From IMG/VR virus record IMGVR_UViG_2703718785_000025: DNA of 10,444 nt; one strand, written 5' to 3'. The notes beneath the pieces were generated by a model, which saw nothing but the letters and a program-made list of their open reading frames with translations, had not been told where the DNA came from and made no database searches. Positions within the stretch are counted from its first letter, which is position 1. Every line of letters starts with the position of its first letter. Of the stretch, positions 1,308 through 6,738 are shown piece by piece. The position numbers and the translations under genes are program-made. Source of the DNA: a virus (taxonomy: Duplodnaviria > Heunggongvirae > Uroviricota > Caudoviricetes).

Positions 1308-2749
1308 TCAAAAATCAGCCTGACTCGGGAGCAGTTTTTGCCAGATGGCTGAAACGTATTTCGCCTGGTAACGTGCATCGTTCAGAGCGTTATGGCGTTC
1401 ACCTTCGAATGGAATAGTCGTTCTTGCGTCGAAATCCATCACCAGTCCCAGAGCAACCATCGTTCTTACATCGCGATCATTGGTGTAACGCCACGGGCAG
1501 GGGATCCCCTGCCGTTCATATGAACGGCGTAAAATCACGTTGTCGAAAGTTGCACCGTTACCCCAGACCTGAACAAAAAATTCACCGGAGTTTTCGTCGA
1601 TAAATTCCCGTAATTGCAGCAGTGCATCATCTAACGGGATTTCATCGGTAAGAATGGCGGATTGCGCTTCGCGTGACTGTTTCAGCCACCACTTAATGGT
1701 GTCCCGATCAATGACTCCGCCAGCAGTTTCCAGATCGATAGTTTTGCTGAATTCTGGCCCCATCTCTCCGGTTTGCGGATCGAAAAATATTGCACCTATT
1801 GAGATAATCGGGGCATCAGGATTTTTTCCCATGGTTTCAAGGTCGATCATCAGATGAATCCCCGCTCTGCTGGTGGATGTGAGATTATGATGACCGTTCG
1901 CCTTAATTAAGGGATCTGACGCCTCGCCAGTTTCACTATCGCTGGCATGATGCTGATTGCCGCCAGTGTTCTCCTTGTGCTGATGCGCAGTGCCTTCCAT
2001 TTCCTCCGGATCATTTTCCTGAACTTCAGGCTGATTCTCTTCATCGAATATTTCCTGGTATGTTGCGTCACTTATCACCGCACCACAATCAGGGCAGCTA
2101 CCGCCGCCGGTCTGACCGCAGGCGGTGCAGGCTTTTTCCGGCTCCTGTTTCGTTTCTGGCTCGTTTTGTTGCGCATTTGGGCTGTTTTGTTCCGTTTTCT
2201 GGTCGTTCTGTTCCGATTCTTGCTGGTTCTGGTTCACAGAATCGCAGGTTTCAATCCCCTTCACCCATTTCGGATCATTCGGATCGCTAATCCCTTCAAC
2301 AAATTCACCACGTGATGCAGCAAGCAATTTATCGGCGTCAGGCTGGCTGATATTGGCTGCCTGCATAATTTTGTTTACTTCGTCAGCGGTAACTTTTACC
2401 GGCTCCGGTTGTACGGAATCTTCAGCGGTATCCACATTTTGCGGTAAGTCCGTGTATGTTCCGTTTTTGCGGGCAAGATATTCTTCTTTCGTGATTTCAG
2501 TAGCCCCGGCAGCCAGTGCCTTATCCAGACCAGAAAGTTTGTTTGCGCGACCGTATTTTTCGCCATCCTTGTCGGTGAAGAGGAAGTAGAACGGCCCCTC
2601 ACGCTCTACAGATGGTTCGACTTCCACTTTGCATTCGGTTTTTTCGTTGTCCGGAATTGCCGTTTCCACTGCATCAGTTTCTGGTACTGGCGACGAGAGA
2701 GTATCAGTTGCGCTCTGATTTGTTCCTTCATCTTCAAACACGCCCTTTG
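1308..2749 (-). CDS. Prophage exonuclease, C-terminal portion: Q/N/E-rich linker, CxxC-x9-CxxC zinc-ribbon motif and DEDDh (DnaQ-like) 3'-5' exonuclease domain; 5' end runs into the assembly gap
   Basis: Frame is open from the stop at 1308..1310 up to the first N at 2750. Exo motifs are visible in the translation: DLETMG (Exo I), WGNGATFDNVIL (Exo II), HNALNDARYQ (Exo III, H-x4-D). CTACGQTGGGSCPDCG gives the zinc-ribbon motif. The M at 2741 in the ORF track is a GTG and not the true start. Confidence 0.8.
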
Positions 2750-3826: not shown

Positions 3827-4015
3827 TTATTGACGTTCTCCGAAAATACCAAGTTCAAGAAGAGCAATTCGGGAAAGTATGGAATTATCATTGAGCAGAT
3901 AAGGCTCATATTTCCTCATATTAATGGCATCTTCAGTAAACTCCCGGTTACTGAGCAGAACACCAATATCAAAACAACCTTCAGACGTATTAACGTTTGG
4001 TAATAACGTTTCCAT
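3827..4015 (-). CDS. Hypothetical small protein (62 aa)
   Basis: Internal ATG at 4013..4015 of the 97-aa track ORF, with GAGGA 7 nt upstream. Product METLLPNVNTSEGCFDIGVLL...GIFGERQ. No family recognised. Confidence 0.45.
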   Translation of the reverse strand: METLLPNVNTSEGCFDIGVLLSNREFTEDAINMRKYEPYLLNDNSILSRIALLELGIFGERQ

Positions 4016-4032
4016 TATCGCGTCCTCAACAA

Positions 4033-4180
4033 TGAATTTTGTGATGCGGTGCCTGGTGCCTCCAGGTGACGTTAACCAGTTAACAATTAACGCCGGATAC
4101 AGAGAATCCACCCATAACACTGTTTTTGGTTTTAACTGTTCCGCGTGCGCTGAGCCGCATTCACCGCATCACAAAATTCA
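4033..4180. repeat. Perfect 19-bp inverted repeat flanking 110 bp
   Basis: TGAATTTTGTGATGCGGTG at 4033..4051 and its exact reverse complement CACCGCATCACAAAATTCA at 4162..4180. The left arm lies just upstream of the RBS of the 3827..4015 gene. The enclosed segment contains GTTAACCAGTTAAC (4071..4084). Confidence 0.7.
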
Positions 4181-4583
4181 CTTTAAAAAGGGCGGCAGAG
4201 CAGCCACGGAGTAAAACTGATACCGCCAAACGTCACCAGAAAATTGATAACAGAGGGCGTTGCAGCGGGGTTGTCACTTAAGCGTATGGTCAACCTGACA
4301 ACCCGGTGTCCTCAACTGGGGAAGGAATAACCCCGCCATACTTACCGCCGCGCCATTTCGCGGATTGCCACAACCGGAAGCGCACGGTCGACGAAAATTT
4401 AACGACAGGCTATCTATGAACCAGCTACCTCGCCGTGCGCTTTCGCGTTATGGTCTGACTTTTCAGGGAAATATCCTTTCAGTAAACTGTCAGTGCCGGA
4501 TGCTCACCCGTGTCCGGCGCACGCACTCCACCTCACCCGTGGAGAACTCCTTAATTACCAACCTTAGCTTCGTTGGTTAGCTA

Positions 4584-4802: not shown

Positions 4803-4894
4803 GTCGGCTCCTTGTGGTTAGCGCTGCCTGCTTTTAACCACGTCAGGCGAGGTGGTATCCTCTGAGGGGTCTGTTACTCGAGAGGAAATTGGTT

Positions 4895-5095
4895 ATGAAT
4901 ACAATCAAGTTTTCTTGCCCAGAATGTGGTGGCGAAGTCTTTGACACATCCTTTAAACCGCATGGCTCTGACAGTTTCGCGGGAGCCATCTGCAAAAATT
5001 GTGGTCACCTTGTAACTGAAGATGAGTCCTCGCAGTTTGATGACGAAATCGTTGACAATATCTTCGGTGCACTCACCAGAGACTTTCTGAAGTAA
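4895..5095 (+). CDS. Small zinc-ribbon protein (66 aa), CPEC...CKNC
   Basis: ATG at 4895 with GAGG in AGAGGAAA 7 to 8 nt upstream; the track start at 4889 is TTG. Two CxxC pairs (CPECGG and CKNCGH) spaced 21 residues apart, with an acidic C-terminal tail. Confidence 0.5.
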   Translation: MNTIKFSCPECGGEVFDTSFKPHGSDSFAGAICKNCGHLVTEDESSQFDDEIVDNIFGALTRDFLK

Positions 5096-5473
5096 AGGCG
5101 CATACCGCTTAGTTACCGCTCTGATAATTCTTACCTGTCCGGCAATGGCGCTGATATCAATATAAAGCGCCATCGCTGTTTCTTTGCTGATCCCTGGATG
5201 CCTTCCATTCTGATGTTTGACTTCGCCCACTGAGAAATCCTCTGTTTCCCCTTAACGCCGGGGTAGCGGAACAAAAAACCTGCTGCATAGTTAAACGTAA
5301 TCCCCGCCGTCATGTTCATACGCCTCAGGCTGGCTACTTAACCCCTGACCACTGCCGGGTAACTCGAAGTATTGCCCTGCGTTCTGTGGGGCGGGGTGGG
5401 TTTATGGATACAATTTACAAATTAAAATTTAACTGGTCAACATGTTTATTATTAAATTTGTAATTGCGGGCTG

Positions 5474-5502
5474 TTGCATCAGTCCCAAAATGGGACTACT
5501 AT
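5474..5502 (+). promoter_or_regulatory. Putative higBA promoter with operator-like inverted repeat
   Basis: -35-like TTGCAT (5474..5479), 17-bp spacer, -10-like TACTAT (5497..5502). The spacer holds a 7-bp inverted repeat AGTCCCA-aaa-TGGGACT (5481..5497). The predicted transcript start is within a few nt of the higB ATG at 5509 (little or no leader, no SD seen). Confidence 0.4.
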
Positions 5503-5508
5503 ACAGTT

Positions 5509-5811
5509 ATGAAGATTATCTCAGTTAAAACACTCAGGGATTTTTGGGCGGAGAATCCTGATGCAGAACAACCGCTAAGGGCATGGGTGGATGAGGCGGC
5601 AAAAGCTGACTGGAAAAGCCCAGCAGACATTAAGGCACAATACCGAACGGCCAGTATATTGAAAAACCGGCGCGTGGTATTCAACATAAAAGGTAATCAT
5701 TACCGTTTAATTGTTGCAATTGCGTATCAGCGAGGATGGGTATTTGTTAAATTCATCGGAAACCACAAGGAATACGATGCTATTGATGCTGATACCATCG
5801 AACTGGAGTAA
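5509..5811 (+). CDS. higB: Type II toxin, HigB family (RelE/ParE superfamily)
   Basis: 100-aa product MKIISVKTLRDFWAENP...FNIKGNHYRLIVAIAY...GNHKEYDAID, resembling E. coli HigB as recalled from memory. Toxin is upstream of antitoxin, the reversed order typical of HigBA. The track start at 5464 adds 15 residues with no support. Confidence 0.85.
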   Translation: MKIISVKTLRDFWAENPDAEQPLRAWVDEAAKADWKSPADIKAQYRTASILKNRRVVFNIKGNHYRLIVAIAYQRGWVFVKFIGNHKEYDAIDADTIELE

Positions 5812-5813
5812 GC

Positions 5814-6173
5814 ATGAACATCAAACCTATTCGTACAGAGCAAGATTATGAAGCCGCGTTGCGTGCTGTTGAACCCATGTTCGACAATGAGCCCGAAATT
5901 GACACGCCTGAGGGGGATTTTTTTGAGGTGATGTGTTTGCTAATAGAGGAATATGAAAAAAAACATTATCCCATTGAGCCACCATCCCCAATTGAAGCTA
6001 TAAGATTTCGCATGGAACAGCAGGGGCTGACTGTGAAAGATTTGGAACCCGCAATTGGGAAAAAAAATCGGGTTTATGAGGTGTTGAATGGTACCAGAAG
6101 CCTTACGTTACCAATGATTCGCCGTCTTCATAATCAATTTGGTATCCCCCTGGAAAGCCTGGTTGGATTATAA
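5814..6173 (+). CDS. higA: Type II antitoxin, HigA family (XRE-type HTH at the C-terminus)
   Basis: 119 aa; ATG is 2 nt after the higB stop with GGAG 5 nt upstream. C-terminal HTH region LTVKDLEPAIGKKNRVYEVLNGTRSLTLPMIRRLHNQFGIP resembles HigA. Confidence 0.85.
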   Translation: MNIKPIRTEQDYEAALRAVEPMFDNEPEIDTPEGDFFEVMCLLIEEYEKKHYPIEPPSPIEAIRFRMEQQGLTVKDLEPAIGKKNRVYEVLNGTRSLTLPMIRRLHNQFGIPLESLVGL

Positions 6174-6612: not shown

Positions 6613-6667
6613 CACCACCCCTCGTAAACTAGTTCCGCGATCCTACAGAAAAAATTGATAAGTGGCA

Positions 6668-6706
6668 TTACAAATAGAAGTTGAAATTTAAATTTAAATT
6701 TGTAAT
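6668..6706. promoter_or_regulatory. Operator-like inverted repeat in the divergent repressor/Cro-like promoter region
   Basis: ATTACAAAT (6668..6676) and ATTTGTAAT (6698..6706) form a perfect 9-bp inverted repeat 21 bp apart. Three tandem AAATTT units lie between them (6685..6702). Rightward -35-like TTGAAA at 6681..6686 and -10-like AATTAT at 6704..6709. Confidence 0.5.
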
Positions 6707-6738
6707 TATCGGTGTCATCGTAAAGTTCGGAGGGAAAC

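Follow-up and report, generated by a model that had tools for sequence, protein, structure and literature searches.

The inverted repeat between dicF and dicB of an E. coli O26/O103 prophage closes a predicted multi-helix RNA element distantly related to STnc100

The N leader of phage lambda, in the pL operon, contains an early-left hairpin that lies a few nucleotides upstream of an early gene's ribosome-binding site and is a target of RNase III. [quoted passage not shown] The region is covered by a 1,608-nt K-12 transcript, ydfABC-dicFB-ydfD (PMC10448788). An RNase III-dependent site flagged as known lies between dicF and dicB at 1649470, with 26 reads in an rnc deletion versus 0 in the wild type (PMC5371410, Table S1), a position that is imprecise given the 26 reads and the reporting of one position per 400 bp. 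The same source places an RNase III-dependent coverage site of the Rac prophage at 1418510, next to the 5' end of KilS (PMC5371410). Canonical STnc100 and PasD have in turn been characterised as sRNAs that are expressed and associate with Hfq. STnc100 is connected with PasD in a 2026 preprint, which locates PasD near Q and makes no mention of dicF, dicB or kilR.

The window considered here is the whole stretch of DNA that was analysed, 10,444 nt of a Caudoviricetes record (IMGVR_UViG_2703718785_000025). With 100% identity to prophages found in E. coli O26:H11 and O103:H2, it is assigned to a lambdoid E. coli O26/O103 prophage. RefSeq annotates minus-strand genes for an integrase, an exonuclease, a DUF1482 protein, dicB and ydfC. 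Beyond ydfC come HigB/HigA, a cI-like repressor, a cro-like gene, a ydaT-like gene and replication genes; 101 masked positions (N) fall within the exonuclease gene (2750-2850). The stretch from the repressor gene to the dicB operon holds a HigB/HigA toxin-antitoxin pair (5464-6173 (+)) and the ECs_2282 zinc-binding protein gene (4889-5095 (+)), in the place of ydfA and ydfB in the pL region of K-12 Qin. Operator-like repeats of the TTAAATTTAAATTTGTAA type occur at 5415-5465 and recur at 6667-6707 beside the repressor gene, so that TTAAATTTAAATTTGTAA and its inverse flank the immunity region. A leftward promoter-like site at 5440-5412 (-) sits among the first set, which it overlaps, and is probably pL/OL of the ydfC-dicF-dicB transcript. 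The features of the dicF-dicB interval are collected in Table 1.

Table 1. Features of the dicF-dicB interval in the window, and the corresponding Rac-type loci
Feature	Sequence	Position	Strand	Description and basis
dicB	window	3827-4015	(-)	62 aa; Pfam DicB 6e-37 and RefSeq annotation
Shine-Dalgarno GAGGA	window	4023-4027	(-)	precedes the dicB ATG (4013-4015, read as reverse complement)
P1 3' strand	window	4031-4051	(-)	left arm 4033-4051 plus two pairs; repeat search and fold
P4	window	4052-4066	(-)	predicted 5-bp hairpin CCUGG-AGGCA-CCAGG; near-verbatim in Rfam STnc100
P3	window	4068-4094	(-)	predicted 10-bp hairpin, loop GUUAACU; RNAalifold and covariation
P2	window	4095-4142	(-)	predicted hairpin, conserved base GGA/UCC, hypervariable top; RNAalifold and covariation
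P1a	window	4143-4158	(-)	predicted small hairpin (GCGGC...GC.CGC); RNAalifold columns 30-34/40-45
P1 5' strand	window	4162-4182	(-)	right arm 4162-4180 plus two pairs; repeat search and fold
DicF intrinsic terminator U-run	window	4185-4189	(-)	terminator-like site at 4207-4192(-)
DicF sRNA	window	4190-4242	(-)	53 nt as annotated; Rfam RF00039, 75 bits over 4190-4241
Rac three-part layout	L135 (K-12 Rac)	1750-2003	(-)	
Rac three-part layout	L007	1445-1678		

A repeat search of the window returned two arms of 19 nt, 4033-4051 and 4162-4180, which are 100% complementary and 110 nt apart. This is the perfect 19-bp repeat enclosing 110 bp from which the sequence-only reading started, and it is the longest perfect inverted repeat in the window with a loop of up to 200 nt. 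That reading had judged a chance origin very unlikely, in agreement with 300 first-order Markov simulations of the window, where the longest repeat arising by chance was 14 nt. The repeat fills the dicF-dicB spacer, with the DicF terminator on one side and the dicB ribosome-binding site on the other. On the leftward RNA, an A-U and a G.U pair extend it to a 21-bp helix (4031-4051 with 4162-4182), P1, and folding 4000-4260(-) returns a z-score of -4.8. AAAG separates the DicF U-run from the 5' arm of P1, leaving only 2 nt before the extended helix (4182). On the other side, 5 nt separate the end of the 3' arm (4033) from GAGGA, or 3 nt if the extended helix is taken. The coordinates thus confirm an arm about 5 nt before the GAGGA of the 3827..4015 gene. 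The stem proposed on the leftward transcript just upstream of this small gene's ribosome-binding site also holds: the gene is dicB, and the 1,608-nt K-12 transcript spans the region. What did not hold was the picture of a 19-bp stem closing an open loop of 110 nt. The stem was retained, at 21 bp, and the 110 nt are predicted to form four further helices. The same description had included neither DicF with its terminator directly upstream nor the conserved multi-helix interior.

The spacer is 98% identical to the K-12 Qin dicF-dicB spacer (mean column identity over 311 nt), in the same locus and orientation. The K-12 arms differ from those of the window at two positions, both C-to-U on the sense RNA, so that a C-G and a G-C pair become U.G and G.U there, whereas this copy keeps 19 perfect pairs. 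Because the 1,608-nt transcript covers the region, RNA spanning both arms exists in K-12. Counting the 72 nt given in the later accounts from the DicF 5' end (4242 - 71) leads to 4171, position 10 of the 19-nt 5' arm, and the 72-nt 3' end remains inside this arm even if the ends given there are off by 5 nt. P1 is the sole duplex predicted at 4171, and site 1649470 lies 8 nt from the boundary of the K-12 5' arm. The window element therefore shares with the RNase III site of the dicBF operon, as those accounts present it, a location between dicF and dicB on the sense strand, homology to the K-12 spacer and a helix of about two turns (21 bp) that contains the 72-nt 3' end. By analogy with K-12, this copy is probably cleaved by RNase III as well. 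An RNase III stem downstream of DicF has, on the same accounts, been essentially known at the near-identical K-12 locus since 1990.

We consider it probable, as a whole, that P1 forms in the early-left transcript and that an RNase III cut within it separates DicF from the dicB-ydfD mRNA. In this model the leftward RNA of the early-left operon, which is dicB-sense, would bring the two arms together as the 21-bp P1 that closes the junction, and read-through past the DicF terminator would produce a transcript with the complete P1. RNase III would cut the 5' strand of P1 after 4171 to generate 72-nt DicF, the exact position in this copy being projected from the DicF length given in the later accounts of the 1990 work. 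The opposite strand would be cut near 4040, as expected from the rule of a 2-nt 3' overhang, and this cut would create the 5' end of the dicB mRNA. The two cuts would uncouple the sRNA from the dicB-ydfD mRNA, and the leader left to dicB would be A/U-rich and only some 25 nt long. Expression of dicB may change as a result, in a direction that the model does not specify.

Upstream of DicF, another long hairpin, irregular and with about 23 bp, is predicted at 4366-4453 (-), with a fold z-score of only -2.7. An RNA of 190 nt with the 3' end of DicF would start at 4379, on the 3' strand of this hairpin. This agrees with K-12, for which a 190-nt DicF precursor with a 5' end dependent on RNase III has been reported.

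The position of the stem also raises the possibility that it is mainly a translational gate for a toxic gene in the manner of lambda N, with the helix hindering the 30S subunit and RNase III cleavage relieving the hindrance. We treat this reading as tentative and rather unlikely. It would be in keeping with a helix base only 3-5 nt from GAGGA, with a Shine-Dalgarno sequence and start codon 30-43 nt after inner P1 in every subtype of the element (upstream of dicB, kilR, rha-like genes, tciA/terB and a 40-aa ORF), and with the literature, in which several of the downstream products are toxic division inhibitors. However, partition-function folding, which addresses pairing only and not steric effects, gave the Shine-Dalgarno an unpaired probability of 0.12-0.21 in all six constructs, with and without the element and before and after the inferred cut, and the element folded as a closed module that did not pair with the ribosome-binding site. 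With accessibility this constant, relief of a lambda N-style occlusion is unsupported by the thermodynamics. A pairing of CCUC, 5' of DicF, with the Shine-Dalgarno in the minimum-free-energy fold was dropped, ensemble accessibility being unchanged. The comparison with an RNase III-processed leader like that of lambda N, made in the sequence-only reading, is thus upheld for processing, by the identity to K-12, the 72-nt end at 4171 (from the DicF length in the later accounts) and site 1649470, and gains no support from folding for the relief of translational repression. The likeness is one of position and of RNase III, drawn from established knowledge and not from homology of sequence or structure. 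Unlike the lambda N leader, the element follows an sRNA terminator, is predicted to close a five-helix junction and leaves the predicted accessibility of the ribosome-binding site constant.

Beyond the cleavage model, the spacer recurs in phages with other genes downstream. BLAST of the spacer against phage genomes returned 43 records, just 20 of them with DicB. In the DicB-less phages the homology ends exactly at the stem base (window 4031), and the next gene begins about 20 nt further on: kil/kilR in Rac-like and Stx phages, tciA/terB in the P1-like P7 and D6, and a 40-aa ORF in a Klebsiella phage. A DicB search of genome contigs found two E. albertii loci only, and the comparative set was thus built from the phage BLAST together with viral contigs scanned for a sequence pattern. 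The scan added 120 loci, and 67 distinct elements resulted. The downstream gene is dicB in 35 of these, kil in 15, a Rha/Ash-family gene in eight, tciA in three, the Klebsiella ORF in three and another gene in three. No annotation lies under the element match in the RefSeq E. coli records listed. Judged from sequence, the element seems to act as a point at which phage mosaics are joined.

Several individual copies merit description. Some are recombinant, with breakpoints inside the element: L069 is missing the 5' half, and L085 combines a dicB-type 3' arm with a rha-like gene. In three P1-like phages (L006, L014 and L027), a boxA-like TGCTCTT(A/T)CC occurs about 10 nt 5' of the core, which may be chance. 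Aeromonas phage AP1 (MT713136.1, 249906-250152) carries DicF and a spacer 98-99% identical to E. coli, and Actinobacillus phage vB_Apl-pPE4 (PP818812.1) a spacer 87.7% identical in a Rac-like context (DicA-like repressor, ydaT, kil, exodeoxyribonuclease VIII). Both segments are unexpected for these hosts, which suggests contamination or misassignment.

The interior of the element is structured and conserved. RNAalifold on 36 representatives predicted inner P1, P1a, P2, P3 and P4 (Table 1), with compensatory changes in 9 of 32 pairs that stem from four or five lineages only and so amount to few independent events. When outer P1 was included, 94.1% of cells were paired versus 33-41% in slid-partner controls, and 13 pairs changed on both sides versus 3-8. 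The covariation score was 0.160, which 0 of 500 shuffles reached, versus at most 0.048 in the slid-partner controls. Outer-arm sequences differ between subtypes, and pairing is kept. P1a hardly varies, with four of its five pairs unchanged throughout and one-sided variation in the remaining pair; with 100% of cells paired and no compensatory change, this helix is neutral evidence. The base of P2 shows compensatory changes from A-U to C-G and from G-C to A-U, and its top, 20-46 nt long, exists in at least 12 unrelated versions. P3 changes on both sides in 4 of 10 pairs, with 98% of cells paired; its loop and the GUCACC columns are invariant by construction, part of the alignment set having been gathered by a pattern in P3/P4. 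In P4, a U-A pair becomes G-C in seven sequences. On this model of the fold, the interior and stem, about 150 nt, are predicted to be a conserved five-helix junction RNA with P1 as its closing helix. The P3 loop (4078-4084 (-)) holds the palindromic hexamer GUUAAC, and the STnc100 of an Stx phage has GGUACC (L136, about 1583-1592). A palindromic loop could permit dimerisation through loop-loop contacts; in the Rfam consensus the loop is no palindrome, and the likeness may be coincidence.

At its gathering thresholds, Rfam reported DicF alone. By E-value reporting, the element matched STnc100 (RF02076) with 37.4 bits (E 8e-7), which falls below the gathering score of 47 and therefore makes it a non-member of the family. 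The match extends over model positions 21-154 and includes all helices in the same order, in agreement with the independent RNAalifold run, and the element and STnc100 have the motifs GGUGAAU and CC(N)GGAGGCACC(N)GGCACC in common. The kil, P7 and Klebsiella subtypes scored 33-44 bits against the same model, and the canonical copy 207.7. Model positions 1-20 (the 5' seed) and 155-206 (the 3' terminator), which belong to a stand-alone sRNA, are unmatched: the 3' arm in the window is followed by the Shine-Dalgarno and dicB, with no hairpin and U-run. The window element is a distant relative of STnc100 and, by the Rfam criterion, not a member.

Both the element and STnc100/PasD are prophage-borne and intercistronic, and both consist of a closing stem followed by small, variable, long and CC(N)GG-AGGCA-CC(N)GG hairpins in that order. 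They differ in the closing stem, 21 bp here versus 8 bp in STnc100, in the 5' seed and own terminator, which this element is without, and in location, which is the early-left operon upstream of dicB/kilR here and downstream of stx or Q for STnc100/PasD. Canonical STnc100 (L136), with its 8-bp closing stem and own terminator, sits between stxB and an esterase gene of an Stx2 phage. PasD as the same locus was rejected, its place being near Q. A more far-reaching proposal, which we offer as speculative and think unlikely, is that the dicF-dicB and kilS-kilR spacers form an unrecognised early-operon branch of STnc100/PasD. Each would belong to a cassette of a DicF-family sRNA, a five-helix RNA and a division inhibitor or other toxic gene, in which the junction would have a function of its own (factor binding or an excised RNA of about 130 nt) and the long stem would be an RNase III add-on.

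Because a double-stranded helix is all that RNase III requires, the cleavage model leaves the conserved interior junction unaccounted for. The short-stem relatives (9 bp in P1-like phages and 8 bp in canonical STnc100) are unlikely RNase III substrates, and the primary function of the fold may lie elsewhere than in RNase III cleavage. One version of this, to which we give a low probability, makes the junction the functional unit: RNase III would cut both P1 strands, and the STnc100/PasD-related RNA thereby excised, about 130 nt long, would be a trans-acting or factor-binding molecule. An interior conserved beyond the needs of a spacer, with compensatory changes, would be explained in this way, as would the match at model positions 21-154 to a family whose canonical member, like PasD, is an expressed, Hfq-associated sRNA. 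Such an RNA would, however, be without the 5' seed and the 3' terminator of a stand-alone Hfq sRNA, and the K-12 interior position 1649470 had 26 reads in the rnc deletion and 0 in the wild type, which speaks against a stable excised RNA, even though the operon was repressed in that experiment.

The long outer stem is linked to the terminator that precedes it, an association that bears on the cleavage model. It was found in all 72 distinct variants that have a DicF-family terminator in front (hairpin GGCGG...CCGCC with a T-run and AAAG), and in 0 of 9 without such a terminator. The nine terminator-less variants, of the P1-like and Klebsiella types, have only an inner stem of 9-16 bp, and plasmid matches to P1-like phage-plasmids comprise the core only. 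Given this linkage, the long stem seems to have been added specifically where the element stands behind an sRNA terminator in a polycistronic mRNA. The linkage fits a defined cut between sRNA and mRNA in read-through transcripts.

The variation of P1 itself bears on whether the arms are sites in DNA, either a pair of repressor operators or the terminal repeats of a miniature mobile element, both of which the sequence-only reading had allowed. We regard this as very improbable. The repeat is indeed a perfect 19-bp inverted repeat in DNA, but its perfection is a peculiarity of this copy: Watson-Crick pairing at all 19 positions occurs in only 10 of the 58 distinct long-stem variants, and the others have G.U pairs or a bulged A. 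Over these 58 variants, P1 comprises 1106 Watson-Crick, 101 G.U, 7 A.C and 4 other pairs. Arm variation is mostly to G.U on one strand, and the outer arms diverge while pairing stays, a pattern that fits selection on the sense-strand RNA and not on DNA symmetry. The arms are also unrelated to the real operator-like repeats of the window at 5415-5465 and 6667-6707, which speaks against paired operators. The presence of 1-9 copies of the element per E. coli genome might suggest a mobile element, but the number tracks that of lambdoid prophages. Apart from a few incomplete ones, the fetched copies all precede a start codon within phage operons, in a constant position and orientation, and neither empty sites nor target duplications were seen.

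A small peptide or a second intrinsic terminator is scarcely credible, since the ATG-initiated frame MRLSARGTVK... (ATG 4156-4154(-), 26 aa), though present in 66 of 67 variants, is conserved only over its first 10 codons, which overlap a conserved RNA motif, varies in the remainder in sequence and in length (11 to >46 aa) across a variable region of 20-46 nt with no 3-nt periodicity, and has no usable Shine-Dalgarno spacing, and since the 3' arm is followed by CAUUGUUGAGGA, with no U-run, the minus-strand scan giving the DicF terminator only. The dicB frame is open upstream to a GTG at 4120 (3827-4120 (-)), through the 3' arm and P3/P4, which is probably not meaningful; it recalls the title of a 1988 paper, according to which DicB is reportedly translated from an in-phase internal start.

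The closest parallel to the whole arrangement is KilS-kilR of K-12 Rac, which has the same three-part layout (Table 1) of a DicF-like hairpin with terminator, a long-stem STnc100-like element and the gene of an FtsZ inhibitor. KilS, an annotated K-12 Rac sRNA, scores 39 bits on the DicF model (39-41 bits for the Rac-type layout), which is sub-threshold. Rac differs in a 3' arm with a bulged A and a U.G pair, in having kilR and not dicB downstream, and in another sRNA seed.

Rediscovery of the RNase III stem from raw sequence is correct and adds nothing new by itself. The added value lies in the STnc100-like junction, its reuse before several toxic early genes and the coupling of the long stem to DicF-family terminators. 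In the literature searched, we did not find a STnc100/PasD-like junction at this place, its reuse before dicB, kilR, rha-like genes and tciA, or the coupling of long stem and terminator. Together, the kinship of the junction, its reuse and the terminator coupling point to a single cassette, in which sRNA, spacer and toxin would share both inheritance and processing. For work on DicF, DicB and KilR, one arm of P1 would offer a mutational target for parting DicF output from DicB or KilR output.
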